NCBI GenBank assembly: GCA_016935665.1
Contig: JAFGQN010000070.1
Coordinates: 378-64,377 of the forward strand
Direction: 5' to 3'
DNA from: Deltaproteobacteria bacterium
GTDB lineage: Bacteria > Myxococcota_A > Polyangia > JAAYKL01
Length of the DNA: 64,000 bases
The translations under genes were made by a program, and so were the position numbers. Positions 214 to 22,309 of the stretch are shown here, one piece after another (the stretch's first letter is position 1; each line of letters begins with the position of its first letter). The notes under the pieces are model-generated. The model did no database searches and was not told the origin of the DNA. It saw only the letters and a list, made by a program, of their open reading frames with translations.

Positions 214-3200
214 TCAATCCTCCGCCAAATCTGAATTGTTTCTGGCCATTACGCAAACGTCGTAGTGCGTTTCCCGGTCGAGTACACTAAATTGGATGGG
301 GTTAAAGCTGATGGGAAGCCGAAAGTTCTGTCGTTCTGATTCTTTGAGCTCATTTTCCATTTTGCTCAGTAGTCGTTCCATGGAGTCCCTCTTTAGGCTC
401 AGCCGATGTTTGCTGAATCTGCTTTCAAGAGCGGATAGCTCTGTATCATGTGCCCATTGACAAAATCCTTCGTAAACCGGATCCTTAAATAGCTGGAGGA
501 AATGGATACAGATATGACGGATGCGAAGAAAGTTGTGGCGAGTGGGTTGCTTCTTTCCCAACAGGGTTTTCAAGGCCTGATTGAAGTAGCGATAGGAAGC
601 AATCCAAAGTGTCCCTTTACGAGTTTTGGAATCTTCGCCATTGTCACAGTCTTGGAGCAGAAACAAGTATAGCTCACCCAGGCATGTGCTCGCTTCAATC
701 GACTGCGAATCCTCAATTGTTTCCAGGAAATATTCATTTGAAATAAGGTACAACATTTCAGCGTAGAAAGAGGCATTTTGACACTGGATTTTGCGTTGCT
801 CGTCGTCCCCTTGTTCGTCGCTCGAGAGTTGGTTCGTTACTTTTTTTACGTTCAGAGGTGGGTTCGATGATTTATCATACCGCCACAAAGGATGTTGCCT
901 GTTTTTTGCATAATCTTTTTTGGTGCAATATTTATCCAAGTCTTCATTCTCTTCGCCAATTTCAGTTTCAAATTTTAAAGCCATGACCTGTTTCAGATAG
1001 TCCCGCAAAATGAATCTCGAAGACACGAATGGCTCGAAAAGTTTTGTTTGTGCCATCACAGCATAAAATTTTCCCCAGAGACATATTAGTTCAGCTAAGC
1101 GGCGCCGATCGGAAATCTTCATGTCCACAAAATGGGGTACGTCGCTTGGGGCTACGACAATAGCGCTGCATTCCCTGGAATCGGACCAGAATTCTTCAAT
1201 TTGTTCTGCATCCAAAACTCGCGTAATGCCCTTTTTCAAATCGACAGGTGAAAAATGTAATTTCTTTGCAACGGACGAACAGAAAGTCGCGTTACTTTTT
1301 TTCCGAATAGAAACATGTGAAGCGGCTGATACAAATTTTCGTGATAAACAGTTGAAACGGGATGGTTGTACACTAGGAATTTGCTTCAGGAGATCTCTCA
1401 AGTTTAAAAAAGAGTCTGAGTTTTCGGCTTTACTGATTATTTCTTCCACGATCTGCTTTGTGGCATCATACAACTTTCGCTCCCTTTTCTTTTCATATTG
1501 TTTGAATAATCGCTCCTTTATTATCACGATGATGATTTTTTTACGACGGTCTACGGAATCCTTGCTTACTAAAAGAGAACAGACTTGATTTTCCTGTTTG
1601 CGTGTTGTTTTACTGGCCAACTCTCCAATTGATGAAAACAAGTCTGAAAAGCTTTGCGGATCTATAGTCGACAAACGCTGATCGGTGTCTCTCTGAATAT
1701 TGCGTTGTTCTTTCTTCGCGATACTTTCAATTTCTTTATCACGTGCGGTCCGGAATTTATTGCGTACAAATTCGAATGCATCATCTATTATCGAATCTTT
1801 TATAGAATCAGCCTTGTCGTTCTCCTCTTTTGCCTCTTTTGCTTTTTCCGCTTTTATCTTTTCCGCTTCTGTCTTTTCCGCCTCCGCCTTTGCTTTTTTC
1901 GATTTTGTCCTATGCGATTTTATTCTACGCAATTTTATTCTCTTAAATTTGTGTTCCAAACTATTTTCGTTGTCCGACATCCATTCATGAATTGTTAAAA
2001 TGACGAAGCGTTCGAATTCAATATCCCAATAGAAAACATCTTTCTCAAAAAAACTTTCAACTTCTTTGAAAATTAAATTGTCGATTAGCCGTACAGCAAT
2101 CTCACTCAAGTTTTTGCTGTCCAACCGATAAGACAGTGAAAGTTTATTCCATTCGGAAGTATCTGTCCCCCGCGGGGATTCCTCAAGATTCCAGAGACGA
2201 CAGCGTAAACGTTTAACCAACACATCAAATCGATATCGTTTTCGCCCACCAATCTTGTACTGTTCAGCAGCAATACCGTACCACGCTTCGGGTTCATCAA
2301 GATTTGGCAAAGTTCCATTCAGGCATTTGTGTTCGATGTCCAATTTTTGATACTCTATACCCAAATGTTTCAATGTTCTTTTGAGTAAATCCTGTTTAGT
2401 TTCTTGATTCGATGATTTTTTCGTCCTTTTGTTCAGGTCTTTATTCGCGTTGGAACAAGCAACAAATACATCACCAACACTTTCGTAAATTTGTCCCTTA
2501 TAAATACTGCTGAAACATGGTCTTTTCAATTCGGAAGCCGCAGCAGAATAGAGTCGTTCCAGAGCCAGGAAGTAAAACATTAGTGCCAATCCAAAATCGC
2601 GACGCCTTACCATTATTTGCGCAATGAATATCAATTGTCGTAAAATAGCAACATCGTCGTTTTTACGAATGGCGTAGTCCAATCCCACAAGCAGATACAA
2701 ATTAGCAGTGACGCGGTGCCACAGCTTTTCGGCAACCAGGGAAATACCGCGCAGCATATCCAGTGCGCGAATTGGCTCCAGCTGGTTTCTTATTGGCCCA
2801 GTGTTTTGCGTTTGAATACCGCCATCCTTTTCAGAAGAAGACGTACCGTTACCGCTAATGGCTTTGAGCAAATAACCCAATTGGTCTTTTTCATCACCGG
2901 GTAGCATCAACTCCATTATTGCCTGAAAGTCACCAACGAAAGACACTGGCGAATGGATTCTTTTTTTCAAAGGTTCAACTTCTCCCAGTATGGGAGAGAA
3001 AGTAGAACAGCCTCTAAACACATCGTAAGTAATCTGCTGCTGCGAGTATACACTGTAAGTGTTCGCCGCTTCGACATAACCCAGTGCAATTTGGTAGCAT
3101 TGATAGGCCTCCTCGTGTTCATAATCAAGTTGGTGAATACATGCCAGCCTTCCAATAATATCAACCGCTACAGATACGATTTGGTTAAGCCGAACGACTT

Positions 3201-5472
3201 GTATGTGTGAAACAGCTGCATGATTGAGCTGAGAAACCTGATTATCCTCCATGAAAACCTGAACCCATCGTAGCGCTTTTTCGTACTCCAACTTCGCGGT
3301 TTCATGGTTCTCCAAAAGTTCATACAGATAACCAAGCCGATATTGCACATGGATTGTTTCAAGACGCTCCTTTACGGGTAACTGCTCTACCCTTGAAATG
3401 GTATCACGTAACAGTTGAATTTCATGAGACACATCTGTTTGAGTAAACCGCAGTTCCATTTGTTCGTCACCGAATGTCATAAACAGATATTCAAGATCGG
3501 ATTTAACACGGGGAAGAAACTGATATTCGTGTTTCCGCGGATCGAGCCGCATGATAAACCGATCCTCAAACAAATTCAGAATATATTCCATCAATCTTCG
3601 ACTGGGATAGAGTTCCTCTCTATGGGTCATGAAATTGGCGTTTTCAATATCCTTCCAGCTAAATCCCTTATTGTAAAATTTGAAGATATAATCGATAAAG
3701 TGAAACACTGCGACACAGGCTTTGTCATCAAGCTGTTCAAAGAAATCTCGGCGGGATTCCAATACCATCACTATGTCCGCAAAGAATTTCAGTTTTTTTC
3801 GCAGATCGCTTTTCAAATGGACGATGTACTTGACCTTGCCTCTTTTTTCCCAGTACTCCTCATCCTTCTCATAGTCGTCGCGATCGCGAATCATTCCGTA
3901 GAATTCACGTAAAATTTTTCGCGGAATTCCTCTACCTCGATAAGTTAAATACCGAAGAAAATAACGAATACGTCTGGCGTGTTTTTCTGTACAGGCAGAT
4001 TTTGTTTGTTCATCTGCCTCTTTGTCTAAGAGTTTTTCTAATTCCCCTATGAGCGTGTCAATGTTTTCATCGTCGCGGGTAGTGATGTTTTGCGAAACAT
4101 AGCTGTCCTTGCATCGTAGAACAAGTCGATATAGCTCATTAATTGAAAAATGGGGCAGTACCAGCAGGCCAGTATTGTACGTCCAATGGCCTGGATAAAT
4201 ACCAACAGCCGCAAGTGCGTGTTTGTACAAAGATATTGTTGATATCCCATTTTTTTCAGAGTTGTTTGGGTGCAGTTGTGGCGCCTTTAGCCTTGAAGTG
4301 AGGGTGCTGGGAACATAAATATTTTGAACAAAAATGGACTCGAATATGCCTTCGCCTTTGTTCTGATCTTCCTGCCAACTGTCGTCGACAATTTTACCGG
4401 CAATAAAAATATGAAAAGCGTTGGCTTCGCTCAGTAAAAATTTCAGGCTGGAAACAATGGTTTTTATTTCCTTCAATTTTGTGGATGCAATTTTATGGGA
4501 TGGTGTGTCTTCTGGACTATCCGGGACAAGTTTGTCGATTTCATCGAAGATAAAGATTAACTTGTAATCGCGATCGTACAGTTTGCGAATGCACAAAATC
4601 AAATCCTGTTGCGCTTCATGCAAGGTATAGCCACGATACTCATATGAAACAGCATTGACTTCAGAGTGCTTTTCCGTCACAGACACCCCAAACAGCCCCA
4701 TTGGGAATGACGCGGAAAATGTCGGCGACACCTCATGCCCCATGGTTTGCATATCTTTTTCAATTTTCACAAATCGGTCATATGTGTGTTCAATGCGCTC
4801 CGCTTCGTTTCCATCAAAACGACCAGTTCGTGAACACTCGGCGAGCTCCTTTATCATCATCATGACCAACGCCATTGGATCCCGGGAGGTGCTTAAATTG
4901 ATGCGAATTGGTACATAAAACGATTGTCCGCGAGGGTCCAGATGGTGTGATTTTTTGCCATCCTTGATGATTTGCGAAATGGTGTAGTTGACCAGCGATG
5001 ATTTCCCTGTTCCGCGATATCCGGTAACCAGAATACTCCCACCTTTCGATTTTTCGATGATTGACCGCAAACGCCGAAATTCCGATTCCGGAACGCAGAA
5101 TCGTTCGTCGTTGTGCATATCCGTTTTGTCGGGATCGTGACTTTCAAGTGCTGGTTTTCCCAGTGTCCCCGAACTGTCTATTTCTTGATTGTGGCTCGAA
5201 TGATGGGAAAATCCGAAGTTGCTTTTGTCAAGCCCAATCCACGTATCATTTTTTGGGGGAAGGGAACCCAGAAGTGTCAGAATATCTTTTTTTTCCATAT
5301 CGGCCTCGCAGTGCAATATGAGCCATGAAGTCTGAATGTCATCGAAATAAAACTTGGTGTTATGGGACTTGCGAATATAAACATCAACAGCAGAACAATA
5401 CAACGGGTATTTATAAAAATTCGCGATGTGGCTTGAAATTTGTATCGCGGTTTTCAAGAGAGTATTTGTCAT
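214..5472 (-). CDS. very large (1,752 aa) P-loop NTPase with TPR-like helical repeats and a K/E-rich coiled segment (STAND/AAA-like, family not identified)
   Basis: Uninterrupted 5,259-nt ORF. Walker A is VTGYRGTGKSSLV and the Walker B-like motif is KLIFIFDEIDKL. TPR-like helices follow (YRLGYLYELLENHETAKLEYEKALRW, AYQCYQIALGYVEAA), then a K/E-rich coil (KSKKAKAEAEKTEAEKIKAEKAKEAKEEN). The ~500-aa C-terminal part has no motif I recognise. AT-rich relative to most of the window. Confidence 0.85.
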   Translation of the reverse strand: MTNTLLKTAIQISSHIANFYKYPLYCSAVDVYIRKSHNTKFYFDDIQTSWLILHCEADMEKKDILTLLGSLPPKNDTWIGLDKSNFGFSHHSSHNQEIDSSGTLGKPALESHDPDKTDMHNDERFCVPESEFRRLRSIIEKSKGGSILVTGYRGTGKSSLVNYTISQIIKDGKKSHHLDPRGQSFYVPIRINLSTSRDPMALVMMMIKELAECSRTGRFDGNEAERIEHTYDRFVKIEKDMQTMGHEVSPTFSASFPMGLFGVSVTEKHSEVNAVSYEYRGYTLHEAQQDLILCIRKLYDRDYKLIFIFDEIDKLVPDSPEDTPSHKIASTKLKEIKTIVSSLKFLLSEANAFHIFIAGKIVDDSWQEDQNKGEGIFESIFVQNIYVPSTLTSRLKAPQLHPNNSEKNGISTISLYKHALAAVGIYPGHWTYNTGLLVLPHFSINELYRLVLRCKDSYVSQNITTRDDENIDTLIGELEKLLDKEADEQTKSACTEKHARRIRYFLRYLTYRGRGIPRKILREFYGMIRDRDDYEKDEEYWEKRGKVKYIVHLKSDLRKKLKFFADIVMVLESRRDFFEQLDDKACVAVFHFIDYIFKFYNKGFSWKDIENANFMTHREELYPSRRLMEYILNLFEDRFIMRLDPRKHEYQFLPRVKSDLEYLFMTFGDEQMELRFTQTDVSHEIQLLRDTISRVEQLPVKERLETIHVQYRLGYLYELLENHETAKLEYEKALRWVQVFMEDNQVSQLNHAAVSHIQVVRLNQIVSVAVDIIGRLACIHQLDYEHEEAYQCYQIALGYVEAANTYSVYSQQQITYDVFRGCSTFSPILGEVEPLKKRIHSPVSFVGDFQAIMELMLPGDEKDQLGYLLKAISGNGTSSSEKDGGIQTQNTGPIRNQLEPIRALDMLRGISLVAEKLWHRVTANLYLLVGLDYAIRKNDDVAILRQLIFIAQIMVRRRDFGLALMFYFLALERLYSAAASELKRPCFSSIYKGQIYESVGDVFVACSNANKDLNKRTKKSSNQETKQDLLKRTLKHLGIEYQKLDIEHKCLNGTLPNLDEPEAWYGIAAEQYKIGGRKRYRFDVLVKRLRCRLWNLEESPRGTDTSEWNKLSLSYRLDSKNLSEIAVRLIDNLIFKEVESFFEKDVFYWDIEFERFVILTIHEWMSDNENSLEHKFKRIKLRRIKSHRTKSKKAKAEAEKTEAEKIKAEKAKEAKEENDKADSIKDSIIDDAFEFVRNKFRTARDKEIESIAKKEQRNIQRDTDQRLSTIDPQSFSDLFSSIGELASKTTRKQENQVCSLLVSKDSVDRRKKIIIVIIKERLFKQYEKKRERKLYDATKQIVEEIISKAENSDSFLNLRDLLKQIPSVQPSRFNCLSRKFVSAASHVSIRKKSNATFCSSVAKKLHFSPVDLKKGITRVLDAEQIEEFWSDSRECSAIVVAPSDVPHFVDMKISDRRRLAELICLWGKFYAVMAQTKLFEPFVSSRFILRDYLKQVMALKFETEIGEENEDLDKYCTKKDYAKNRQHPLWRYDKSSNPPLNVKKVTNQLSSDEQGDDEQRKIQCQNASFYAEMLYLISNEYFLETIEDSQSIEASTCLGELYLFLLQDCDNGEDSKTRKGTLWIASYRYFNQALKTLLGKKQPTRHNFLRIRHICIHFLQLFKDPVYEGFCQWAHDTELSALESRFSKHRLSLKRDSMERLLSKMENELKESERQNFRLPISFNPIQFSVLDRETHYDVCVMARNNSDLAED

Positions 5473-5699: not shown

Positions 5700-6281
5700 C
5701 TAGCCTCGCAAAACATCCTGTTCTGATGGCGGTGGTGGCAGTTCTGCGTACAATGCAACGTTCAGAACTGGTTTCAGCGGCATTTTCGCAGGCGCTGAAA
5801 CCTTTCCTGGTTGCCGAGAAAGAGGCAAAATCTCGCCAGTGACAATCGTCCTTCGCTGGTGCTTCTTCAGCCGCCACCATTTTTTCACCAGCCTTTCCCA
5901 ATTGTATCCGCTGCGCTCTTCCGCAAAAGCAGTGCCTTCGCCCAGTTCAAGGGCAATCCGGTCACGGATCACGCGCCCATCTCTGCCTTGATATTTCAAA
6001 AAGCAGCCAATGTACTGCAGAATGGCCTTTCGGGCCCCCTTGGGCGTGTACAACTCCGCTCGCCTACTCGCTGCTGCCGGGTCGATTTGTTCTCTTCGTT
6101 TTCTGCCTCCGTACATGATGATGTTGTTGCCGTACACGTGGGAGATATTCATGTATTCGTTTTCGAAGAGCTCTTTGAGTGCGCGTTGCAGAGTGGACAG
6201 ACTGCATGCTTCATTGGTGGCGCGTTGGATGGCGGCAGCCAATGCTTTGAGTGTGCATCTGGTTCCTTTTAAACAAAGCAA
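5700..6281 (-). CDS. hypothetical protein with HTH-like segment
   Basis: TTG-start ORF of 193 aa. It has an HTH-like stretch (TLKALAAAIQRATNEACSLSTLQRALKELF) and a basic C-terminal half. An antisense ORF of similar length (5811..6272) overlaps it, and it lies in a fragment-rich zone, so coding status is uncertain. Confidence 0.35.
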   Translation of the reverse strand: MLCLKGTRCTLKALAAAIQRATNEACSLSTLQRALKELFENEYMNISHVYGNNIIMYGGRKRREQIDPAAASRRAELYTPKGARKAILQYIGCFLKYQGRDGRVIRDRIALELGEGTAFAEERSGYNWERLVKKWWRLKKHQRRTIVTGEILPLSRQPGKVSAPAKMPLKPVLNVALYAELPPPPSEQDVLRG

Positions 6282-6550
6282 TCGCTCCAGCCATCAACAT
6301 ACTCCCGGCAATCGGCAAAGCGATGCTAAACGTTTTTTCGCGGTCAGACATTTGTTCGCCACTCGCAGCCGCAAGAATTCCTCCGGAGGAAGGACTCAAT
6401 AAATATGATATCCCGAGCATCCAACCAAGAGAGGATTGCAGCTTAGCCATTCCTCGTACGTACCTCTCAACGACCCATGATTCTTACGATTACATCAGAC
6501 AAATATCAGCAGATTAAATCAAACCAAGATCCGCACCAAAAGCAAACAAC

Positions 6551-6811
6551 GTGATTATTTCTGTATCGCGAAGCCTTGGATGGAAGCTTTGTTTGATCCA
6601 GTCCAATTTCTTTAGAACAGATAACGAAATTGATTATCTGGAAAAGTTCATTCCAACACTTGCCCAAAGCGCCACCAGGAAGGCCTGCCAGGATGCGTTG
6701 TGTCGCGGCAATACTGTTACTGAAATCGTTGATGGCAAGATAGTGGAAACCGCTCCAGACGGCACCCGAACAATCATCGGGGACGCCAAACCGATGGTAA
6801 AGGTTTGTTAA
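6551..6811 (+). CDS. small hypothetical protein
   Basis: GTG-start 86-aa ORF. The C-terminal part (ATRKACQDALCRGNTVTEIVDGKIVETAPDGTRTIIGDAKPMVKV) resembles a widespread small-protein pattern I recall but cannot name. It competes with antisense ORF 6506..6985. Confidence 0.3.
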   Translation: MIISVSRSLGWKLCLIQSNFFRTDNEIDYLEKFIPTLAQSATRKACQDALCRGNTVTEIVDGKIVETAPDGTRTIIGDAKPMVKVC

Positions 6812-11578: not shown

Positions 11579-11606
11579 TTGTACACAAAAAGGATTGTGG
11601 TATAGT
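11579..11606 (+). promoter_or_regulatory. sigma70-like promoter candidate (TTGTAC-N16-TATAGT), possibly giving a leaderless mRNA at ATG 11613
   Basis: TATAGT at 11601-11606 is preceded by TG (extended -10). The ATG at 11613 lies 6 nt downstream. The -35 is weak. The dyad TTTTGT-AC-ACAAAA overlaps the -35 region. Confidence 0.35.
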
Positions 11607-12917
11607 CGCCCCATGACACCAGATGAACAGCAATTTTTAAAGGAATTTTACCAGGCCCTGGCGGATAGGCCATTGGACCCTGAAGAACATTGGTACCAGC
11701 CGTTTTACAAGCTTGCTGCGCAACACCCCGACCCGGTAGAAGATTTGCTTAAGGGGATAGAGTGGGCAGAGACGCTGGAAACCGCCCAGTTGTTTAGCGG
11801 ATTCCGTGGCACAGGCAAAAGCACCGAACTGAGACGTCTGCAGCAGCGGTTGGCGCAAAATGGTCAATACAAAGTATTGCGCTGCGATATGCAGGAGTAT
11901 CTAAACCTGTCGACACCAATCGATATCAGCGACTTTTTGATTGCAATCGCAGGCGCGTTTAGTGAGAAGCTTGCCGAAGATGATTTCCTTGGAGACGATC
12001 CGTCCCATGAGAATTATTGGGACCGGATAAGTAATTTTCTTACCAAAACGAAAATCAATTTTGAAAGCGTGTTTTTACAAATTCCCGGTGTCGACATAAA
12101 GGCAAATCTGAAGCAGGACCCCAGCTTTAAAAGCAAACTTCAGCAGGAAATGAAAGGGCACCTTGGCGCTCTGGCCAATGATGTGCGTTTGTATCTTGAA
12201 AGCTGCATAAAAAAGCTGAGAAATAAACACGGTGACGATACCCAGGTTGTGCTTTTGCTCGATTCCATTGAGCAGATCAGGGGCACCTCAGTGAATGAAG
12301 ATGATGTGTACGCGTCGGTGGAGACCGTCTTCCAGGGGCATGCCGACAAGCTGCGCCTGCCGTATATTCACGTGGTGTACACGGTTCCCCCGTGGCTTAA
12401 AATCCGGTCCCCCGGGGTGGCGGCGCTGTACAGCAACAGTGAGCACTTGCCGTGCATTAAAGTGCGGCAACCGGATGGCGCCCCGGACCAGACCGGCGTG
12501 GCGGCACTCGTCGAACTCGTTGGCAAACGTGGTGACTGGCAAAAGCTGTTTGGTTCAAAGGAAAATCTCGAACGGGTCATTCTCGCCTCTGGTGGTTATT
12601 TGAGAGATTTACTTCGGCTGCTGCAGCGCTGTTTGCGGCAGGCCTCATCTTTGCCAATAGATAAAACCACCATCGAGATGGCGGAACATCATATCCGAAA
12701 CAGCTACTTGCCAATTTCCCGGGATGATGCGGTGTGGCTCAATCGCGTTGCCACGACGCATCGTGCGGAGTTGATGGCGGGGAGCGACCTCGGTCATCTC
12801 TCCCGTTTCTTCGATACCCACCTGATTTTGTGTTACCGCAATGGGAAAGAGTGGTTTGATGTCCATCCGTTGATTGCCGAACACGTCCGTGAGCTGGCTC
12901 AGTTTGAAGCAGAGTAA
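11595..12917 (+). CDS. P-loop NTPase (STAND/AAA-like), first gene of an NTPase+TPR pair
   Basis: Walker A is FSGFRGTGKSTELRRL and Walker B is QVVLLLDSIEQI, with a helical C-terminal half. The start may be ATG 11613 (MTPDEQQFL...). It ends 10 nt before the next ORF. Confidence 0.85.
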   Translation: MWYSRPMTPDEQQFLKEFYQALADRPLDPEEHWYQPFYKLAAQHPDPVEDLLKGIEWAETLETAQLFSGFRGTGKSTELRRLQQRLAQNGQYKVLRCDMQEYLNLSTPIDISDFLIAIAGAFSEKLAEDDFLGDDPSHENYWDRISNFLTKTKINFESVFLQIPGVDIKANLKQDPSFKSKLQQEMKGHLGALANDVRLYLESCIKKLRNKHGDDTQVVLLLDSIEQIRGTSVNEDDVYASVETVFQGHADKLRLPYIHVVYTVPPWLKIRSPGVAALYSNSEHLPCIKVRQPDGAPDQTGVAALVELVGKRGDWQKLFGSKENLERVILASGGYLRDLLRLLQRCLRQASSLPIDKTTIEMAEHHIRNSYLPISRDDAVWLNRVATTHRAELMAGSDLGHLSRFFDTHLILCYRNGKEWFDVHPLIAEHVRELAQFEAE

Positions 12918-12927
12918 ATGAAAATGT

Positions 12928-14406
12928 GTGTGCATCATGGTTGAATCGTTGTTCAATTGGGGCGCCGAAAACGAAAAAGCATGGTTTGAACTAAAGCGTC
13001 ATCTTGAATGGGCCGATGGATTCTGGGTGGTGTTTGTTTTCTCTCCGTCTCAAATTAGCGCAGAAATGTTGAAACAACGGGTTGTCGAACAACTTGAAAC
13101 GATGCAACGGCCTTTCACTGTGGAACAGCCCGAGACGCCGGATGCGCTGGTTGATCTGATCTCAGCGTTCGTCGACAACCCGGATGTGCCCAGCCCCCTG
13201 ATGTGGGTTGAGGCGCTGCACAAAGATAAAGTCGATACGACGAGCACGGCGCGTCCCTGGGAACGGGGATGGGAAACACTCCTTCTTCGAACAAATGAGC
13301 GACGAGAACGGCTTCGTAAAAAGTTTCAAAATGGATTGGTGCTGGTCGCGCCGGAGAATTTGAAAAATGTGTTTCGAAACACGGCGCCGGATCTCTGGTC
13401 GGTGCGAACCATGCTCATCGAGCTCACGCCACCACGCTTTGACGCGGATAATAAAGGACTGGCCCAAAATGCAGAAATGACCGAGGCATCATTTAGGTCC
13501 CCCCCCAGTGGGGACCCCCCCAGCGATCCGGAGCTGGCACTGGCCGCTGCGCACCGACTGGAGAAGCAGCGACCGGATGCGCCCCTGGCCATCGCTCAGG
13601 CCTACACCCGCGCCGTGAGCGGGCTGATAAAAGCAGGCAGGGAAGATGAAGCTCGGATTGCAGCAGAAACGGCAGATAGGCACCTGCAGTCGATGGGGCT
13701 CCCTCCTGATGAGGATGAGAATTTATCTGCGACTGCAAATTTGGCGTCTGCGTTATTTAACCTTGGTAGCGCTTTTAACGAACTCGTCCGTTGGGAAGAC
13801 GCGCTTCGGGTCAACAGGCAGGCGACCGATTTGTATCGCCACCTCGTGGCGCAGCGTCCCGATGCGTTTATGCCGGATTTGGCGATGTCGCTCAACAACC
13901 TTGGAAATATGTACAGTGCTCTCGGGCGCCGTGAAGAAGCGCAGGAAGCGACGTTTGAGGCCGTTGAGAAGTATCGAGAGCTGGCGAGTGATCGTCCCGA
14001 TGCGTTTATGCCTGATTTGGCGGGTGCGCTCAACAACCTTGGAAACAGTTACAGTGATCTCGGGCGCCGCGAAGAAGCGCTGGAAGCGACGTTGGAGGCA
14101 GTTGAGAAGTATCGAGAGCTGGCGAGTGATCGTCCCGATGCGTTTATGCCTGATTTGGCGATGTCGCTCAACAACCTTGGAAACAGGTACAGTGATCTCG
14201 GGTGCCGCGAAGAAGCGCTGGAAGCGATGTTTGAGGCAGTGCGAAAATTGGCGTCGTTCTTTTTGCGGTTGCCTGCGGCATATGGAAATTGGATGGGAAT
14301 ATTCCTGCGCAATTATATCAAGAACGCTGAAGCGGCCGGACAGGAAGTGGATGGGGAATTGGTGGGGGCGATTCAGAAGGGGCTGGAGGCACTGGGAGAA
14401 AACTGA
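12928..14406 (+). CDS. TPR-repeat protein (kinesin-light-chain-type TPR_10/12 units) with ~180-aa unknown N-domain
   Basis: Three near-identical 46-aa units of the form DRPDAFMPDLAxSLNNLGNxYSxLGRREEAxEAxxEAVEKYRELAS, plus flanking degenerate units. The N-domain (FWVVFVFSPSQISAEMLKQRVVEQL...) resembles pseudo-NTPase N-domains seen in STAND-associated TPR proteins (recollection only). Confidence 0.85.
   Translation: MCIMVESLFNWGAENEKAWFELKRHLEWADGFWVVFVFSPSQISAEMLKQRVVEQLETMQRPFTVEQPETPDALVDLISAFVDNPDVPSPLMWVEALHKDKVDTTSTARPWERGWETLLLRTNERRERLRKKFQNGLVLVAPENLKNVFRNTAPDLWSVRTMLIELTPPRFDADNKGLAQNAEMTEASFRSPPSGDPPSDPELALAAAHRLEKQRPDAPLAIAQAYTRAVSGLIKAGREDEARIAAETADRHLQSMGLPPDEDENLSATANLASALFNLGSAFNELVRWEDALRVNRQATDLYRHLVAQRPDAFMPDLAMSLNNLGNMYSALGRREEAQEATFEAVEKYRELASDRPDAFMPDLAGALNNLGNSYSDLGRREEALEATLEAVEKYRELASDRPDAFMPDLAMSLNNLGNRYSDLGCREEALEAMFEAVRKLASFFLRLPAAYGNWMGIFLRNYIKNAEAAGQEVDGELVGAIQKGLEALGEN
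13855..14250 (+). repeat. 138-bp tandem repeats (about 2.9 copies) inside the TPR gene
   Basis: CGTCCCGATGCGTTTATGCC... restarts at 13855, 13993 and 14131, an exact 138-nt period. Copies differ at only a few positions by eye. Confidence 0.85.
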
Positions 14407-14620
14407 CACGCCTTTATTCCGTGCCCTTCGAGACGCCACGTTTGGACGTTGGCTCCTCAGGACAGCGGAATCTGTCTGAATCTGTCGGAACTATTGCTTT
14501 GCGAACAGGAAACCCAAATAAAAATCCAAATTATCCCCAAAATCCCATTGGCGCATTCCGTACGATTGTGGAATCGTTAGTTCGTATGCAAACAGAATAT
14601 TATTCCAGGCACCAAATAAA

Positions 14621-14899
14621 GTGGCCGCATTAACAACCGCTTTGGCGGCCATCAGCGAAGATGTGCGCCAGGCCGACATTAAACTGGTTGAAAAACGGGA
14701 GGCCATGGATGCCTACGACAAAGGCTTTTCCGCCACCGCCGATTTAATTTCCACTCTGCTTAAACTGGCCGGCGAAGACGAACTGGCCAAACGGGTGCGC
14801 CCCTCCTCAAGGCGACCGGGCCAAACGGTTGAAGACGCCAACGACGCGCTCCTCGACGTCGAAGAACCTTCCGAACAAGCTGCGGTGGACGTGGCGTAA
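14621..14899 (+). CDS. small hypothetical protein (92 aa)
   Basis: GTG-start ORF: MAALTTALAAISEDVRQADIKLVEKREAMDAYDKGF...RRPGQTVEDANDALLDVEEPSEQAAVDVA. It is helical with an acidic tail and has no family call. It ends 15 nt before the palindrome array. Confidence 0.35.
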   Translation: MAALTTALAAISEDVRQADIKLVEKREAMDAYDKGFSATADLISTLLKLAGEDELAKRVRPSSRRPGQTVEDANDALLDVEEPSEQAAVDVA

Positions 14900-14913
14900 C
14901 GCCTCCATTCCTG

Positions 14914-15140
14914 TCAAAACCACTTTTCCATCGATGTACCGAGCACATCACCCATTCGAAACCGGTTTTTACCCAGTGGTCCCAGTTGCCCATTCACTCA
15001 AAACCACTTTTCCTCGCCCTGGCAGACGCCATCATTCATTGAAAAGTACTTTTCAACGCAATGGGCATATAAAAATCCCGGTCAAAAGCACTTTTGAGTC
15101 GTATGGCACTGGTGCTAATTGAGCAAAAAGTACTTTTGAA
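14914..15140. repeat. array of six dyad-symmetric motifs (AAAAG-N2-CTTTT type) phased exactly 42 bp apart
   Basis: The six cores are at 14914-14929, 14958-14970, 14998-15013, 15039-15056 (perfect 18-mer TTGAAAAGTACTTTTCAA), 15082-15097 and 15124-15140. The dyad centres are 14921.5, 14963.5, 15005.5, 15047.5, 15089.5 and 15131.5. Confidence 0.8.
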
Positions 15141-15399
15141 CCTGATGCCCGTCTCCAATACCCCTATCAAAATAACCAAACGCCAATGTCATGAAACAAA
15201 AAAACACGGTCGCCGCTGTGAACGTCACACCATTGACCAGTCATTGGTTATATCCCCGGTTTCCCCATGCCAGGAGATTGTGCACGCCTGCGTTTGCCCG
15301 GCTGCCTCTATAGAGTAAAATTAGGAAATCATTCAAGACGTGACGGAAAAAAAACAGGAGGTGGAACACAAACGTTTCACTCCACGAAAGGAAGAATGT

Positions 15400-17289
15400 A
15401 TGAAAAGAATGCTTTTTTTTAAGATGGTATGGATACTGGCTGCATCGATGATTATCAGCTGTGAGGGAACTGGCAATCAGGATTCGAGCGAAAAAGATTT
15501 GGCCGCTTTCGCAACGATGGGGAAGGGCGTGGCAGCGTTGAGAGTCCAGGCAGCGGGGCTTTCCATTGCGGATATTGCCCGAGTGGAAGTAAGCGTGAAT
15601 GGCGACTATATCTCTCCAGACATCACTGCGACACTTTCAAAGAATACCGGCGGTGAATGGACAGGTATAGTCAATGACATCCCGGCTGGTGAAGGTCGTA
15701 CGTTCACGGTTGGCGCGTATGATTCGAGTGATGCGCTGCTGTACGATGGCGCCGCATCCGGGGTTGTTATTGTGGATGGCGCAACCGCTTCTGTTACAGT
15801 ATTTTTGCAACCATCCATTTCACCGGATCCGTTTTTCAACGCCGTTCCCCGGTTTACTTCCTTGTCCCTTTCTGCCAGTCAGATAGCACCAGGACACACA
15901 GTGTGGATGAGTGCCGAAGCTGCAGATCCCGATGGCGATGTCCTTGCATCCTCGTGGTCTTCCAGTGGGGGATCATTTGGTACCAGTGACAATTGGAACA
16001 CGACGTGGACAGCACCGACTACTCCAGGAAATTATGAAATTACCGTTGCCGTGGCTGATACATCCGGTGCGACGGCCACAATCAGTTTTAGTGTTGACGT
16101 TCAGGTGCATTATGGCAGCGGTAGCGCCACGGTGAATCTGAATATCAACAACTGGCCTGAAATTGCGAATCTTGTGCCCTCTTTGACCCGTATCAATGTG
16201 GGAGAATCGACGTCTCTTGAGTTGACAGCTGCAGACCCGGATAGAGATCCGCTGGCGTTTACATGGACATCTGATTGTATTGGTGTGTTCAGCGATGCCA
16301 CATTGGAAGACCCGATATTTACACTTACAAACGACAACGATGGTCTCGACTGTACGATTGCGGTCTCTGTAACTGATGGGCGCGGAGGCAGCAATCAGGC
16401 GAGTGTTGCCATCCAGACCGGCGATGCTGTGGCGCCTGTTATTGTTCCGGAGACAGGGTGGACAACGCTGGCTCCGATGCCCGTAAAGGCAAGTGCGTTT
16501 TCCTATATCCGCTATATGGATTCTGTGTACATCATCGGAGGCGGGCTCGATAATGAGGGGTCCAACACTTCGACAAATGTACAAAAATATCATATTCCAA
16601 CAAATACCTGGGAGACCGACATCAACCATGGCGGATCTCTTGCGCCGCTGCCGGCGCCAAGGGCGTTCGGTCTCAATTCCGGTGTTATTAATGACAGGAT
16701 TCATACCGTTGGCGGCTGGGATGAAGGTGGGACATACCAGAATACACATTTCATCTATGATCCGTCCAACAATACCTGGTCTTCAGGTGTGCCTCTTCCG
16801 AACTATCCAATTGGTCAGTTTTCCGCTGTAGTGGACAACGCGTTTTACGTGATGGGTGGCTGGTGGGGGTCATTCCAGTCAACGGTTTTAAAATATACTG
16901 ACGTCGATGGGTGGACAGAGGTAAGTGCCATGGCAACAGCGCGCAACCATGCAACGACTGCTGTTGTTGGCGGTAAAATTTACGTGATTGGCGGGGAAGC
17001 TGCCAATATACCTCAGGTGGATACGGTCGAAGTGTACGACCCACAGTCAGATAGCTGGACAACAGGACTGGCACCATTGCCAACTCCGCAGTCATATCTC
17101 GGGTGGTGCGGCTCGCCGGTACTGAACGGCAGAATTTATCTCGTGACGAGTTATCGGTATGATCCGGCACTTGACATATGGACTGAATCATTTCCTCCTG
17201 TTCCAGGTGGCGTCGTTGCGGCTATTGAATGGCTGGGAAGCATTTATGCCTTTGGCGGTGATCTGACGATAGGTGGTACTCCCATGTAG
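15400..17289 (+). CDS. lipoprotein with Ig/PKD-like modules and a C-terminal Kelch-type beta-propeller
   Basis: The ORF is open from 15340, but AGGAAG plus ATG 15400 gives MKRMLFFKMVWILAASMIISC|EG (lipobox). There are two Ig-like modules (AADPDGDVLASSWSSSGG..., AADPDRDPLAFTWTSDC...). The Kelch blades read VYIIGGG, RIHTVGGW, AFYVMGGW, KIYVIGGE, GRIYLV and SIYAFGGD. Confidence 0.85.
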   Translation: MKRMLFFKMVWILAASMIISCEGTGNQDSSEKDLAAFATMGKGVAALRVQAAGLSIADIARVEVSVNGDYISPDITATLSKNTGGEWTGIVNDIPAGEGRTFTVGAYDSSDALLYDGAASGVVIVDGATASVTVFLQPSISPDPFFNAVPRFTSLSLSASQIAPGHTVWMSAEAADPDGDVLASSWSSSGGSFGTSDNWNTTWTAPTTPGNYEITVAVADTSGATATISFSVDVQVHYGSGSATVNLNINNWPEIANLVPSLTRINVGESTSLELTAADPDRDPLAFTWTSDCIGVFSDATLEDPIFTLTNDNDGLDCTIAVSVTDGRGGSNQASVAIQTGDAVAPVIVPETGWTTLAPMPVKASAFSYIRYMDSVYIIGGGLDNEGSNTSTNVQKYHIPTNTWETDINHGGSLAPLPAPRAFGLNSGVINDRIHTVGGWDEGGTYQNTHFIYDPSNNTWSSGVPLPNYPIGQFSAVVDNAFYVMGGWWGSFQSTVLKYTDVDGWTEVSAMATARNHATTAVVGGKIYVIGGEAANIPQVDTVEVYDPQSDSWTTGLAPLPTPQSYLGWCGSPVLNGRIYLVTSYRYDPALDIWTESFPPVPGGVVAAIEWLGSIYAFGGDLTIGGTPM

Positions 17290-17703: not shown

Positions 17704-20319
17704 TTGATGGGGGAAATCGACATGAGCACCACACTCGACGACGATTTGGGCACATTGCAAGAGCTGGACTATTATCGCACGCTGGCAAAGAAATTAATGC
17801 ATAAAGGGGTAAAGGGACTATGCGATGCAGATAATGAACAATGGAACAATGATTGGGACAGTGATAATACTATTTCCAATGCTCTGGTGGTGCGCTCTCA
17901 TGCTCTCGCATTGCAAATAGATCCATCGGATGATAGCTGTTCAGGTGATACCAGCAGGACTTACATCCAAAGAGTGATACATACGGAAAATGACGTGTTG
18001 GCGCGGCCGCAGGAGGATTTACCAGTGTATAAAGCCGCGAGAATTTTGCACGCATTAATTCGTTCGCAGGGACATATTCTTTCTAAAATATCCGTTTTGT
18101 CGCTGTACCGGGTGCTTCGTGAATTTTACGATGTTCAACCCCCTGAAATGAATACCGGCGGTACAAGAGCGGGAGAAGGCGCCAGAGCGACGTCATTTAT
18201 GACTCTTCAATGTGTGCTGGCGGTAAAAGGCTTTTGCGACGCGATAAACAATACGATTCAATTGCTCGACAAGATAGCGCACATTGTTTCTATCCGAAAA
18301 ATGATTGAAAGCAATCGTATTGCCAAGCCGAACGCGTGGAAAGAATTAGTGAACGACTATATGGAAATGAACCTGACAATCGAGTTTCAGGATCTGACAG
18401 GTCGGGAATTTTTTGGGCCACAAATAAATATCACCAAGGATAATGTCTGGAAATACGTCGAGTCTTTTCCGGGGGATTTCGCAATTTTCCTGAAAGACGG
18501 AATCAATGAAATAGACAAGGCGCTGCAGGAAATCGACGAAAGACGCGTTGAAGAAGCACAGCAATATAGTGAAAACCCCATCCGTTGGCATGCGAAGATT
18601 CCCTTCGAAAATGCGTCCCATGAAATATCTAAAAACGCTATTTTTCACTGCAGGAAACGTCTTGAGGTTTTATGCACCGCATTGTGTGGAACCCCTGCCT
18701 GGGATAGTGTCAACTGGCATAATGCAGTTCAAGAGCTTCAGTCCTGCCATGATAAATTTAAAGAACTGATCAGGCCGTCAAAAAGATACTTCTCAAATGC
18801 GATGAATCGTTTTTTGAGTTTTCAGGATGAACACGCTTTTCAGAGCGATATTGCTGAGCTGGTATTTTCTGCGGTGGGATATGGGTGCGTTAAAGAAAAA
18901 TGGGATAGCAAAAGAATAGTGGACGCTATTTATCGCGCACTTGAATTCATTTCGCCTAAAGGAAAGCTGCCTTCGGGGCATCCTTTTTCAATGGGCCAAA
19001 AAGGATGGCTGCTTCATATTATTTGCCCACAGGTATTTCACTATCTTGCTATAGCAATTAAGGAGTTCAATCCTCCCAATCCCAGGGAACATTTAGATCT
19101 GGATAGGCTCAAAGAAGCTGTCAAACGAATGATATGCTGGTTTGATGACAACAAATTTATCTTTGATAATACCGACAACATCGGCTGGACAATGGATACG
19201 CCCACAGAACCCAAAAAGCCAGAGCGGTGGGTGTCAGTCTGGTGCACACTGGCGTTAAATAAAATCGTAGCTTTGCTTGATAAAGTGATTAACCAGTGTG
19301 TTTATAAACATGTCGATGTGAAATCCCCGGAAGAGCTTGATGTAGAGCTTCACCAAATGATTGTCAGCGACTTTGGATTACGGCAAAAAAAATCCGTCGC
19401 TTTCATGCTGGCAGACATGCAGAATCATTTGCTGGGGCACCAACCCCTGGTCAGTGAACGTCCAATTTTTTCAGCGGTTCTGCATGGGCCACCTGGCACT
19501 GGAAAAACCACAATTGCAGAAGCGCTGGCAAAAACTGCCAGGGCGCAGTTCGTACAGATTACGCCGAGTGATATTGTAGTTGGTGGTGCGGAGCAGGCAG
19601 AAAGATCGGCCAGAAATTTGTTTCAGGCGCTGTGCATGCTTACCAATACAGTCATTTTGTTCGATGAATTTGATCCTATCCTATGGCACCGAGATCCAGA
19701 CGGGAAAGTACCGACGACTGTGTTTGAATACTTAACACCAGGGATGCTGCCAAAGCTGAAAGACCTGTATCGTGCGGCAAAGCGTCAGCGCAACGTATAC
19801 ATGCTTGCCACAAACAATATGCGGGCTTTGGATGATGCTGCTACCCGTAAGGGGCGATTCGATGAAAAGCTGGGCATCTACCCTCCAGACCTTTTGTCCA
19901 GAGTGGGACAATTGGCTTTAGCGTGTGAGAAGCATGCTGAGGAATCCAACACGAGCAGTGCATCCGGTTGGGAAAAAAGATTTGCCCGCGTTATTCAAAA
20001 AACTGCGGGGGGGCCAATGGATACTCTCGGGAAACCAGGATGGTTCACTCCCCCAGACAGTTCAATTAAACCAGATACTATTTTCGACTATCTCTGGAAA
20101 GATGGTCCTGAACCGGATTGGCCCGATTCGGAAGCCACCATGCAGGAAAAGTTAGAGAAAAAAGACTGCAATACCAAATCCATGAAACAGGCATACCTGG
20201 AACAGGAAGAGTGGCAATGGGTCATCGATTGGGACAGGCGTGCGGGGGAAGGCTGGCAGCAAATGGTTGAGGCGCTGCGGCATCCTTTGCAGAAACCCAA
20301 CGTGGGCTGGGATGTGTAA
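17704..20319 (+). CDS. 871-aa protein: ~590-aa unknown N-terminal region + classical AAA+ ATPase module + ~130-aa W/E-rich tail
   Basis: Walker A is VLHGPPGTGKTT, Walker B is VILFDEFD, the sensor-1 region is YMLATNN, and the Arg-finger region is DDAATRKGRFDEKLGIYPP. Likely starts are ATG 17707 or ATG 17722 (GGGGGA RBS). AT-rich. Confidence 0.9.
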   Translation: MMGEIDMSTTLDDDLGTLQELDYYRTLAKKLMHKGVKGLCDADNEQWNNDWDSDNTISNALVVRSHALALQIDPSDDSCSGDTSRTYIQRVIHTENDVLARPQEDLPVYKAARILHALIRSQGHILSKISVLSLYRVLREFYDVQPPEMNTGGTRAGEGARATSFMTLQCVLAVKGFCDAINNTIQLLDKIAHIVSIRKMIESNRIAKPNAWKELVNDYMEMNLTIEFQDLTGREFFGPQINITKDNVWKYVESFPGDFAIFLKDGINEIDKALQEIDERRVEEAQQYSENPIRWHAKIPFENASHEISKNAIFHCRKRLEVLCTALCGTPAWDSVNWHNAVQELQSCHDKFKELIRPSKRYFSNAMNRFLSFQDEHAFQSDIAELVFSAVGYGCVKEKWDSKRIVDAIYRALEFISPKGKLPSGHPFSMGQKGWLLHIICPQVFHYLAIAIKEFNPPNPREHLDLDRLKEAVKRMICWFDDNKFIFDNTDNIGWTMDTPTEPKKPERWVSVWCTLALNKIVALLDKVINQCVYKHVDVKSPEELDVELHQMIVSDFGLRQKKSVAFMLADMQNHLLGHQPLVSERPIFSAVLHGPPGTGKTTIAEALAKTARAQFVQITPSDIVVGGAEQAERSARNLFQALCMLTNTVILFDEFDPILWHRDPDGKVPTTVFEYLTPGMLPKLKDLYRAAKRQRNVYMLATNNMRALDDAATRKGRFDEKLGIYPPDLLSRVGQLALACEKHAEESNTSSASGWEKRFARVIQKTAGGPMDTLGKPGWFTPPDSSIKPDTIFDYLWKDGPEPDWPDSEATMQEKLEKKDCNTKSMKQAYLEQEEWQWVIDWDRRAGEGWQQMVEALRHPLQKPNVGWDV

Positions 20320-20328
20320 GCAATCAAT

Positions 20329-20356
20329 AAAAAAAACTGCCCGTTCAATTCGGCAG
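20329..20356 (-). terminator. intrinsic terminator candidate oriented on the minus strand
   Basis: The minus strand reads CTGCCG-AATTGAA-CGGGCAG followed by TTTTTTTT: a 6-bp stem with one bulge, a 7-nt loop and a T8 tract. On the plus strand no T tract follows the hairpin. Confidence 0.4.
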
Positions 20357-20376
20357 ATAAAAGAAAGGATAAAACA

Positions 20377-20664
20377 ATGGCAAGTGTATTTTTGGAAGCG
20401 GACAAATTCATCACCAGCATGGACAATGATGGGAAGATTTCCATCAAATTTCGTTTTGCCAACCAGAGACATCCGGACGATGAAGAGAAATATGTAGAAA
20501 AGGAACTTCCTTCTTCTAATAAGGCTGAAAAAGAAATCTCGCAAAAATATGTCGAGTTTTTACAGAAGCAGTGTGCCGCAGGTGCAAAAATCTGGGTAGA
20601 ACTATCTGACCAGGTAGAAAAAATAGAATGCGAATCAAAATCCACATCTAATGGCATGGGGTAA
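20377..20664 (+). CDS. small hypothetical protein (95 aa)
   Basis: AAAGGA RBS 8 nt before the ATG. Product: MASVFLEADKFITSMDNDGKISIKFRFANQRHPDDEEKYVEKELPSSNKAEKEISQKYVEFLQKQCAAGAKIWVELSDQVEKIECESKSTSNGMG. No family recognised. The region could instead, or also, be transcribed antisense (see the terminator at 20329). Confidence 0.45.
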   Translation: MASVFLEADKFITSMDNDGKISIKFRFANQRHPDDEEKYVEKELPSSNKAEKEISQKYVEFLQKQCAAGAKIWVELSDQVEKIECESKSTSNGMG

Positions 20665-20733
20665 GCAACTTCAATTTTTCTTTTCTTTTATGGTTAATCC
20701 AATCAGTTCCTGACTTGCACACTTTCCAGAACT

Positions 20734-20762
20734 TTGACTTGGCGTTTAGCTGCAGCTATATT
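20734..20762 (+). promoter_or_regulatory. sigma70-type promoter TTGACT-N17-TATATT for the deaminase gene
   Basis: TTGACT at 20734-20739, a 17-nt spacer, TATATT at 20757-20762. A strong GGGAGGGG RBS precedes ATG 20822. Confidence 0.5.
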
Positions 20763-20821
20763 TTTCTGACTATGGATAAAATAGAAAAAGTGATTTTACG
20801 CCTGTCCCGGGAGGGGATGAG

Positions 20822-22309
20822 ATGAAACAAACTGATCGTTCTCCAATGCTGGTATTTAGCATATGTGGCCAGGTTGGTGCCGGGTTGTCGCTTGTGCGTC
20901 GGAAAATTGCACAGACACTGTCGTCATTTGGGTATGAGTGTATTGCTGTGGATATCAGCCAGGTTGTACTGGAGATGTTTTACAAAAAAGTCATTGAGGA
21001 AGAAGCGGACGGCAATCATACTGGCCTGAAATCCGATGCGGCGCGGCGCATATATATGTTGCAAAGAAGGGGAAACCAGCTTCGCTCCAGGTTTGGGAAT
21101 GACATAATAACTAAAGTATCTGTATCCCATATCATATGGCAGGAATTGCAACGGTCGGACAACAGGCGAATCGCATGGTTGATTGACAGTGTGAAACATC
21201 ACGAGGAAGTGGCTTTTTTACGGGAGCTGTTTGGGGATTCGTATTTTGCCATTGGCGTCATCTCCACAGATTCCGTGCGAAAAAGACGTTTGATGGAGAA
21301 AAAGGGATTCACCGGTGAAGAATTCAATGTGCTTTCAGAAATAGACGCCAGAGAAAAAGGTCTTGAGCACGGTCAAAGCACCATTAAGGCGATTACTCAA
21401 TCGGACTATTTCTTTTCAAATGATTATGCGACAGCAGACAATCTTGAAATCGAGGCGCAACGGCTTCTTCGGCTGATTTTTTCTGTTGGCGTCGATACAC
21501 CGAGACTTGATGAATACGCTATGAGCATTGCCGCCAATGCGGCGAATCAATCCGGGTGTCTGGCAAGGCAGGTGGGCGCCAGCATTGTCAACTCTTCGGG
21601 GCAGCTAATTGCTACCGGCCGAAATGATGTGCCGCAATACGGTGGTGGGCTGTACACTGTTGAGTCCAGAAAAGATCACCGATGCTGGGCCCAGGCCGGA
21701 CAATGCTATAACGATCATCACAAGATGAATATCATTCAGGGCCTAACCACTGAGATAGGAGAGTCTCTCGGTTTAACCCCTGAAAAAAGAGAATCTGTTG
21801 AGGAAATCCTGAAGCACTCGCCCATTGATTCTCTTATTGAATTCTCCAGAGCTGTCCATGCTGAAATGGACGCATTGATGTCCATCGCCAGAGAAGAAAT
21901 CCCCGGCCTGAAAGGGGCATCACTGTACTGTACAACATTCCCTTGTCATAATTGTGCAAAGCACATCATTGCTGCCGGAATTCGAAGAGTTGTGTATCTC
22001 GAACCCTATGACAAAAGCCTTGCGCGGGAGCTTCATTCGGACGCAATAATGAACCCACTTCGGGACAACGAAGATGGAAAAATTCCATTCGATTCCTTTG
22101 GTGGCGTCGCACCAAGACGATATAGCCAGCTGTTTGGTATTAATCGGCGTCGAAAAGATAGAAAAAGCGGAAAATACATAGATCTGGATTTTAAACGAGA
22201 AAATTTGTATCCTCTTGGTGCTCAGGATGAAAAGAGTATCTATCAAAAGGTGGAAAAGGCTGCTATGGTGCTGGTCGAAAATGCGCCTGAAATGCAGGAT
22301 AGCAAGTAG
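20822..22309 (+). CDS. avcD: AvcD/DCD-like antiphage deoxycytidylate deaminase (N-terminal kinase/P-loop-like domain + C-terminal dCMP/cytidine deaminase)
   Basis: The zinc-deaminase motifs are SRAVHAEMDALMSI (H-A-E) and YCTTFPCHNCAKHI (PCxxC), preceded by CLARQVGASIV...GRND. The N-terminal ~200 aa has a degenerate P-loop SICGQVGAGLS (no Lys). Size (495 aa) and domain order match the AvcD / dCTP-deaminase defence family. Confidence 0.85.
   Translation: MKQTDRSPMLVFSICGQVGAGLSLVRRKIAQTLSSFGYECIAVDISQVVLEMFYKKVIEEEADGNHTGLKSDAARRIYMLQRRGNQLRSRFGNDIITKVSVSHIIWQELQRSDNRRIAWLIDSVKHHEEVAFLRELFGDSYFAIGVISTDSVRKRRLMEKKGFTGEEFNVLSEIDAREKGLEHGQSTIKAITQSDYFFSNDYATADNLEIEAQRLLRLIFSVGVDTPRLDEYAMSIAANAANQSGCLARQVGASIVNSSGQLIATGRNDVPQYGGGLYTVESRKDHRCWAQAGQCYNDHHKMNIIQGLTTEIGESLGLTPEKRESVEEILKHSPIDSLIEFSRAVHAEMDALMSIAREEIPGLKGASLYCTTFPCHNCAKHIIAAGIRRVVYLEPYDKSLARELHSDAIMNPLRDNEDGKIPFDSFGGVAPRRYSQLFGINRRRKDRKSGKYIDLDFKRENLYPLGAQDEKSIYQKVEKAAMVLVENAPEMQDSK

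Follow-up and report, generated by a model that had tools for sequence, protein, structure and literature searches.

At positions 14914..15140 of the window, the whole 64-kb stretch of DNA that was analysed, six units with a period of 42 bp formed an array whose reality was confirmed. It does not encode protein, its phase and cores are conserved, and it is linked to a gene family of predicted three-helix-bundle proteins. The family gene and the 42-bp array constitute an apparently undescribed two-part module that recurs in Myxococcota-type bacteria. Each unit, none of them assigned to a strand, carried an A4-N4-T4 dyad core, and the array was orthologous unit-for-unit to the arrays of loci L048, L051 and L053. 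The core consensus was TCAAAA-SYRS-TTTTSM. Dyad centres were located at 14921.5, 14963.5, 15005.5, 15047.5, 15089.5 and 15131.5 for cores 1 to 6, all steps thus being exactly 42 bp. Both this spacing and the core sequences agreed with an earlier note on this DNA, which had described six palindromic motifs. Core 1 (14914..14929) and core 3 (14998..15013) were both TCAAAACCACTTTTCC. The orthologues of core 1 were CAACACCACTTTTCC in L048, CAAAACCGCTTTTCC in L051 and CAAAACCACTTTC in L053. Core 2 was GAAACCGGTTTTT (14958..14970). It had been thought to keep its dyad symmetry with different bases, which was wrong: the orthologous series of AAAACCGGTTTT, AAAACCGATTTT (L048) and AAAACCGGTTTTT (L051) showed that it is an A4-N4-T4 core like the others, altered by a single A-to-G change. 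Core 4, TTGAAAAGTACTTTTCAA (15039..15056), was a perfect 18-mer palindrome, followed by core 5, TCAAAAGCACTTTTGA (15082..15097), and core 6, CAAAAAGTACTTTTGAA (15124..15140).

The motif AAAASYACTTTT, with at most one mismatch, had 10 strand-matches in the 64-kb window compared to 1.45 expected. None of 100 shuffles reached 10, and eight of the ten matches fell inside the array. A4-N4-T4 occurred nine times in the 64 kb, five times on the 42-bp lattice. The lag-42 autocorrelation of the array had a z of 4.4; values above 3 were present in 0.6% of 1,173 background windows. Tandem Repeats Finder did not report the window array because its repetition is confined to the cores. The spacers, earlier considered unconserved, were indeed mostly diverged, but TGGC-N4-7-GCCA dyads and CATTC elements recurred in them, the latter ahead of several window cores. 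The TGGC-N4-7-GCCA dyad was found 20-22.5 bp past the core dyad in spacers 2-3, 3-4 and 5-6 and likewise in the orthologous spacers of L048, where the three exact TGGC...GCCA dyads of the 5.5-kb locus all lay within the array. One of these secondary half-period dyads, TGGC-AGAC-GCCA (15020..15031, no strand), was centred at 15025.5, +20 bp from core 3, and corresponded to TGGC-GACAGGA-GCCA in L048. Another, TGGCAC-TG-GTGCTA (15104..15117, no strand), was centred at 15110.5, the exact midpoint of cores 5 and 6, and differed from its L048 counterpart TGGCGC-TG-GCGCCA by one pair changed on both sides. By eye, each spacer seemed to hold a hairpin. This was rejected by comparison of minimum free energies with 300 shuffles, in which spacer hairpins were no better (mean z between -0.1 and -0.9 for both strands), and only the TGGC...GCCA dyads survived as position-specific.

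The window array was under constraint at the level of the nucleic acid. Between window and L048, the 16-bp cores were identical at 0.80 of positions, compared to 0.44 for ungapped spacers and 0.60 for third codon positions of the family gene, and 92 of 96 A/T-tract positions were kept. Over 2.5 units, the three orthologous arrays aligned gap-free. The six units shared by window and L048 differed by a single 1-bp indel, with spacers about 50% diverged; the alignment of promoter and 5'-UTR of the same loci was full of indels. Core identity and the rarity of indels indicate that both cores and spacing are constrained, in accordance with the earlier claim of selection on nucleic acid and not on a peptide. 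The conservation of the 42-bp phase in orthologous loci, proposed earlier as a check, was seen in L048, with seven cores at steps of 42, 42, 43, 42, 42 and 42 bp, and in L051, with three cores before the contig end. The contig of L053 ended after one core.

Upstream of the array, the window held a 5'-truncated remnant of a family gene (14618..14899, + strand), identified by tblastn and profile search and consisting of the C-terminal 93 codons of a gene for a three-helix-bundle protein of about 255 aa. The earlier note had recorded this small ORF and overlooked that it is a truncated member of the array-linked gene family. The 92-aa ORF (14621-14899) had 86% identity to residues 163-255 of P0002 in tblastn; no match to residues 1-162 was obtained across the window. 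Its product matched the family profile with E = 5e-46. A remnant of the family-gene promoter and the start of the 5'-UTR (14520..14606, + strand) aligned to sequences that precede the full-length genes of L051, L048 and L053. Its hexamers were degraded, with TTGGCG (14548-14553) instead of TTGACC and TGTGGAAT (14567-14574) instead of TGTGTAAT. Past this stretch, the alignment jumped to codon ~160, identifying the window gene as an internal-deletion derivative. The first ~160 codons were lost and the array was intact. The window module is therefore half-decayed and the array may be a relic of it; probably it is either a recent relic or served by a paralogue elsewhere in the genome. Full-length genes of the window's lineage (L051, L048, L053) had a conserved sigma-70-type promoter (TTGACC...TGTGTAAT) and a conserved 5'-UTR of more than 100 nt. 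In L053, the 5'-UTR contained an extra duplicated GC-rich palindromic insert at about 190-250. In L009, an in-frame TAA split the family gene (2696-3448) into ORFs of 92 aa and 157 aa (stop 2972-2974, ATG 2975), representing either a pseudogene or a natural two-gene version.

The truncated family gene abutted a TPR protein gene, and the array started 15 bp after the 92-aa ORF. Genes beside the array were a TPR/STAND-like pair, namely an AAA_16 ATPase (11595-12917, + strand) and the TPR protein (12928-14406, + strand), both upstream, and a PKD/Kelch lipoprotein downstream (ATG 15400-17289), which had a signal peptide with the lipobox IISC. The TPR protein gene comprised 2.8 copies of a 138-bp (46-aa) repeat at 13855-14240. 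A promoter-like sequence, TTGCCC-16-TAAAAT, was located at 15294-15321, about 80 bp 5' of the ATG of the lipoprotein, and the array sits 150-400 bp upstream of it. At other family loci, the array is followed by a convergent gene and hence does not constitute a conserved element 5' of a downstream gene. Further downstream (17704-22309) lay genes for an AAA ATPase, whose IetA-like matches were weak, and for a defence protein of the dCTP-deaminase type (PADLOC dCTPase, E = 1.9e-140), and both flanks (11595-14406 and 17704-22309) resembled a defence island. The position of the array beside a deleted gene at the edge of this island suggests a probable relic rather than an active regulator of neighbouring genes. 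Nothing was found that linked the array to the AraC regulator, which the earlier note had listed among proteins for binding assays. The window, part of a metagenomic contig from Logan SRR13394437, had no tRNA genes, and the consensus sequences of sigma-54 and IHF, compared by eye with the array, did not fit.

Linkage of gene and array was evident across loci. The arrays of L048, L051 and L053 began directly after the stop codon of the family gene. A motif scan for pairs of cores at a distance of 42 bp, covering a single genome of each species, yielded 43 loci in three classes. Class 3 was L009 alone, a deltaproteobacterial MAG, in which a 48%-identical homologue of the 92-aa ORF (E = 4e-17) ended 30 bp before a two-unit array; this locus was found by the motif-only scan without use of the protein. 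Distant family loci with 27-44% identity were collected via the protein and not via DNA. Among them, a lag of 42 was the top period beside the gene in L054, L057, L060, L061 and L064 and was weaker in L050. Units of about 85 bp were present in L055 and L059 and units of 84 bp in L056. The usual position of the array was just past the stop codon; once, in L071 (Polyangia), it was upstream of the family gene. In a prospective test with three new loci, Sorangium cellulosum So ce56 (L072) carried seven 42-bp units, nearly identical to one another, directly behind the stop codon (AM746676.1, about 555,648-555,922), with a lag-42 identity of up to 0.92, and no array was present at L073 or L074. A ParE/Phd toxin-antitoxin pair was encoded directly past the So ce56 array on the opposite strand (6133-6692).

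For 24 family loci, the flanking DNA was sufficient for evaluation. Eleven of them had lag 42 as their strongest period with z > 3, compared to 0.6% of the 1,173 background windows; the z of a family locus was the best of up to about 30 offsets, an effect too small to explain this difference. Cores or units on a 42- or 84-85-bp lattice were present in a further four of the 24. About a third of the evaluated loci (L062, L065/66, L070, L073 and L074) were without an array, so the array is not obligatory for the family gene. A dyad array with a period of 21, 42 or 84 bp lay at most about 400 bp from the gene remnant in the window and from the family gene in L009, L048, L051, L054, L057, L060, L061, L064, L071 and L072. 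Conserved neighbours other than the family gene, such as ParA, regulators or nucleases, were not found across the clustered family loci. Each lineage's core was confined to its own array within its locus, and operator copies of the core were not present at family promoters. The core differed by lineage. A4-N4-T4 was shared by the window's lineage and L009, and L054 had TTTGGGGAATCCCCAAA. In L061, the core CCCGGGAGATTCCCGGG was accompanied by a second palindrome 21 bp away, together forming eight dyads at exact 21-bp steps. Cores of L064 had GCGAACGC...GCGTTCGC arms, and the core of L071 was CCCGC-N-GCGGG. The 42-bp period is conserved among lineages and the core sequence is not.

The protein family was large and had 1,970 clusters at 50% identity with E <= 1e-3 in an exhaustive profile search, of which 1,346 remained at E <= 1e-10. 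Members were found in S. cellulosum So ce56 (CAN90538.1 / A9GR46), many other Sorangium genomes, Polyangia and deltaproteobacterial MAGs, and were named 'hypothetical protein' in all sources. The family protein had no match in Pfam, NCBIfam, PHROG or PADLOC and none in sequence searches of the PDB. An AlphaFold model from a 138-sequence alignment reached a pLDDT of 95.8 and a pTM of 0.83 and predicted an elongated three-helix bundle with helices at residues 4-35, 37-104, 122-138 and 153-212. Foldseek with this model returned nothing significant, the best hit being a trypanosome three-helix-bundle receptor with E = 0.016. Neither a nuclease family match nor a recognisable DNA-binding fold was detected. 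The family is acidic, with a median pI of 5.4, and has two conserved basic patches, K4/R9/K11 at the N-terminus and R221-V-R223-P224-S-x-R227-R228-P-G at the C-terminus. It was not found in 72,556 plasmids, in phages or in viral contigs, and the So ce56 copy is located on the 13-Mb chromosome. Searches of the literature for 42-bp repeats and for the 'PQLLE' family yielded no account of the gene-array module.

The other two classes of the motif scan were look-alikes and not relatives of the window array; a profile search detected the family protein at none of their loci. Class 1 consisted of 21-bp arrays that adjoined genes for Rep_3 initiators, sometimes with DnaA boxes, and represented plasmid iterons. 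Cores such as AAAACCACTTTTT or AAAAGTAGTTTT were present in L008, L013, L021, L024, L030, L031, L035 and L043 (Bacteroidota, Clostridium). Rep3_N and Rep3_C both adjoined the arrays of L008, L030 and L043, and TTATCCACA DnaA boxes were present in L021 and L024. Class 2 comprised tandem repeats of 41/42 bp that were scattered among unrelated housekeeping genes of a few MAGs and of Limibacterium. These GAAAAGTGCTTTTC-type cores were observed in L006, L007, L011, L020, L023 and L036 (CAVJTV01), in L014, L029 and L039 (CAVIFD01) and on the Limibacterium fermenti chromosome (L017). They occupied many separate intergenic regions, 41- and 42-bp steps were mixed within one array, and no three-helix-bundle gene was near them. 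A MAG labelled Desulfovibrionaceae carried GH92 and Mfa2 genes, and the GAAAAGTGCTTTTC-type contigs thus appear to be Bacteroidales. In Planctomycetales bacterium 10988, two short intergenic regions (L027 1504-1557 and L042 329-382) each had a AAAAGYRCTTTT-type core pair 42 bp apart, which may be chance or the operator of a regulator.

Four other explanations were weighed against a duplex-DNA element. That the array encodes a 14-aa repeat, in the ORF 14829-15122 or by read-through of the upstream gene, can be dismissed almost entirely. The period does equal 14 codons, two + frames of the window are open over 65-97 codons, and in L016 (5538-5790) the core recurs at the same 42-bp spacing as part of a genuine coiled-coil coding repeat (14-aa units, ...EKSAFENQIQTLET...), so motif and spacing alone do not exclude coding. 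However, stops were present in all six frames in the window and L048 and in all three + frames in L051, and no + strand frame was open across the array in all three close relatives, bearing out the earlier assignment as non-coding. The 43-bp step in L048 breaks any frame through the array. The read-through frame of the family gene closed after 19 codons in L051 and after 2 in L009, core 6 lay beyond the ORF 14829-15122 as previously stated, and the long open frames of the window result from its C-rich, G-poor composition. An action at the RNA level, in which read-through from the family gene or a promoter within the array would produce a multi-hairpin RNA, appears unlikely. In the manner of type III antitoxin repeats or of a protein sponge, such an RNA would bind the protein; alternatively, it would stabilise the 3' end of the mRNA, similar to REP/BIME hairpins. 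It would fit the start of the array 15-35 nt past the stop codon without an intervening terminator in the window, L051, L053 and L009, the short stem-loops that are possible at the cores, the spacer-dyad pair changed on both sides between window and L048, and the fixed repeat length, which is typical of repeat RNAs co-assembling with protein. Against it, the stems of units 1-3 had four A-U pairs only, spacer hairpins did not surpass shuffles, and whole-array folding in the window gave a z of about -2 on either strand; the stronger z of L048 came from core-core pairing and is uninformative. Dyad mismatches on the sense strand were G.T in 10, A.C in 23 and other in 47 cases, hence without an excess of G.U. 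A terminator with a 14-bp stem separated gene and array in L061, and in L071 the array was 5' of the gene. The strand composition of the array was not conserved, with a GC skew of -0.32 to +0.31 across loci, and a rut-like C-rich strand bias was rejected for the same reason. Rfam gave no match at the gathering threshold over the whole window or at E <= 1 over the locus, and the family protein is not a ToxN-like nuclease. The dyads sit on lattices of 21.0 or 42 bp. Two and four turns of B-DNA correspond to 21 and 42 bp, and this strict lattice favours an element acting as duplex DNA.

A functionless minisatellite would have arisen by tandem duplication of a palindromic, terminator-like segment that was kept in register by unequal crossing-over and hitch-hiked beside the gene. 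This, too, seems improbable. Near-identical units in So ce56, L054, L061 and L064, copy numbers from 2 to 7, the lack of arrays in some family members and a window array that outlives its dead gene are all compatible with such an origin. In the window's lineage, however, units have diverged and still keep cores and spacing, conservation of the cores far exceeds that of spacers or synonymous sites, and there are hardly any indels. The same period also recurs with unrelated sequences beside proteins that are only 27-40% identical, and bacterial genomes quickly delete neutral DNA. Two points weigh against the duplex-DNA reading itself: near-identical units in the GC-rich lineages are equally expected from recent tandem amplification, and the conserved period could in part have been inherited from a common ancestor and maintained by unequal crossing-over in register. 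An iteron-type replication origin or a classical plasmid centromere (Rep_3 iterons or the sopC/parS type), roles that the earlier note had considered in the form of an iteron- or centromere-like site, is very unlikely. Cores of the look-alike type AAAACCACTTTTT with 21-bp spacing do represent true Rep_3 iterons on plasmids of Bacteroidota and Clostridium, and in plasmid F, sopC follows sopB and is built from 12 repeats of 43 bp that each contain a 16-bp inverted repeat (PMC3177203). Yet genes for Rep, ParA or ParB were found neither near the window array nor in any family locus, and the window period is 42 bp and not 21-22 bp. There was also no plasmid or phage context: the family was unmatched among the plasmids and viral contigs searched, an origin from phage or plasmid was rejected on these grounds, and the So ce56 copy is chromosomal.

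In terms of architecture, sopC of F is the nearest analogue that we would name for the array. The window array has six 42-bp units with dyads of 12-18 bp; shared with sopC are units of about four helical turns (43 and 42 bp), an inverted repeat of about 16 bp per unit, and a position immediately 3' of the linked gene. The differences are that the linked protein of the module is a three-helix bundle and not ParB/SopB, that a ParA/SopA ATPase is lacking and the module is chromosomal, and that spacers in the window's lineage are divergent and the core sequence of the module varies between lineages. Iterons are direct repeats of 17-22 bp that recur about every 21-22 bp and are accompanied by DnaA boxes and a Rep gene. 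The window array resembles Rep_3 iterons by its short A-tract/T-tract cores in helical phase, and the iterons from the scan had nearly the same core, but its sites are dyads at 42 bp with no Rep3_N or Rep3_C nearby. Type III toxin-antitoxin systems (ToxI/CptI/TenpI) have identical units of 34-45 nt upstream of an endoribonuclease toxin, with a terminator in between, and act as RNA. A tandem array of fixed length that is tied to one protein gene and varies in sequence with the protein lineage is common to both. In the module, however, the window units share cores only, the array is 3' of the gene in most loci and variable in position, the partner is an all-helical bundle with no ToxN/AbiQ-type nuclease fold, and there is no RNA signature. 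REP/BIME elements are intergenic imperfect palindromes, often between convergent genes, that are dispersed in many copies per genome. The arrays of intergenic imperfect palindromes are alike; within the 64-kb window the core was present in one array, and each family locus had one array. CRISPR arrays have identical repeats of at least 23 nt, acquired spacers and cas genes nearby. A CRISPR array was rejected for the window, in which cores were degenerate and 12-18 bp long and spacers were orthologous and point-mutated among window, L048 and L051. No cas genes were seen.

The best explanation is a cis-acting duplex-DNA element with dyad-symmetric, putative protein-binding sites every four turns (42 bp) and weaker dyads at two turns. 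Plasmid centromeres and operators offer known examples of dyad sites arranged in phase. With all sites on one face of the helix, the element could nucleate a cooperative nucleoprotein complex. Of the roles proposed earlier, a phased binding array or nucleoprotein seed therefore still is the best reading, although its action as duplex DNA by binding of a dimeric protein is what we infer. Even chances are given to the reading that the array is a one-face platform for a cooperatively binding dimeric protein and is functionally paired with the adjacent three-helix-bundle gene. The candidate binder would be the family protein, which might contact DNA with the conserved basic segments at its two termini, or a different factor. 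In favour of the family protein are the linkage and the lineage-specific cores; its acidity and the lack of a recognisable DNA-binding fold speak against it and against this explanation. The persistence of the window array beside a dead gene implies that it acts independently of the gene or is a recent relic.

A more specific and tentative possibility, held at rather low confidence, is a widespread chromosomal system of Myxococcota and relatives in which the bundle protein assembles on neighbouring, lineage-specific palindromes every 42 bp into a dedicated nucleoprotein structure. Such a structure would be a protein-DNA partnership of a novel type and might be a non-ParB anchoring or centromere-like body or the seed of a chromatin filament, with the 42-bp ruler set by the roughly 10-nm bundle. 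Conservation of the period across lineages with unrelated cores points to a structural ruler and predicts phase-dependent binding on one face. The family is large, unnamed and without known fold relatives, and it is present in cultured, genetically tractable Sorangium. If the protein does not bind, the array would mark some other host factor. If the protein binds its array, this would represent a new DNA-binding architecture and provide a function for about 2,000 orphan protein clusters.
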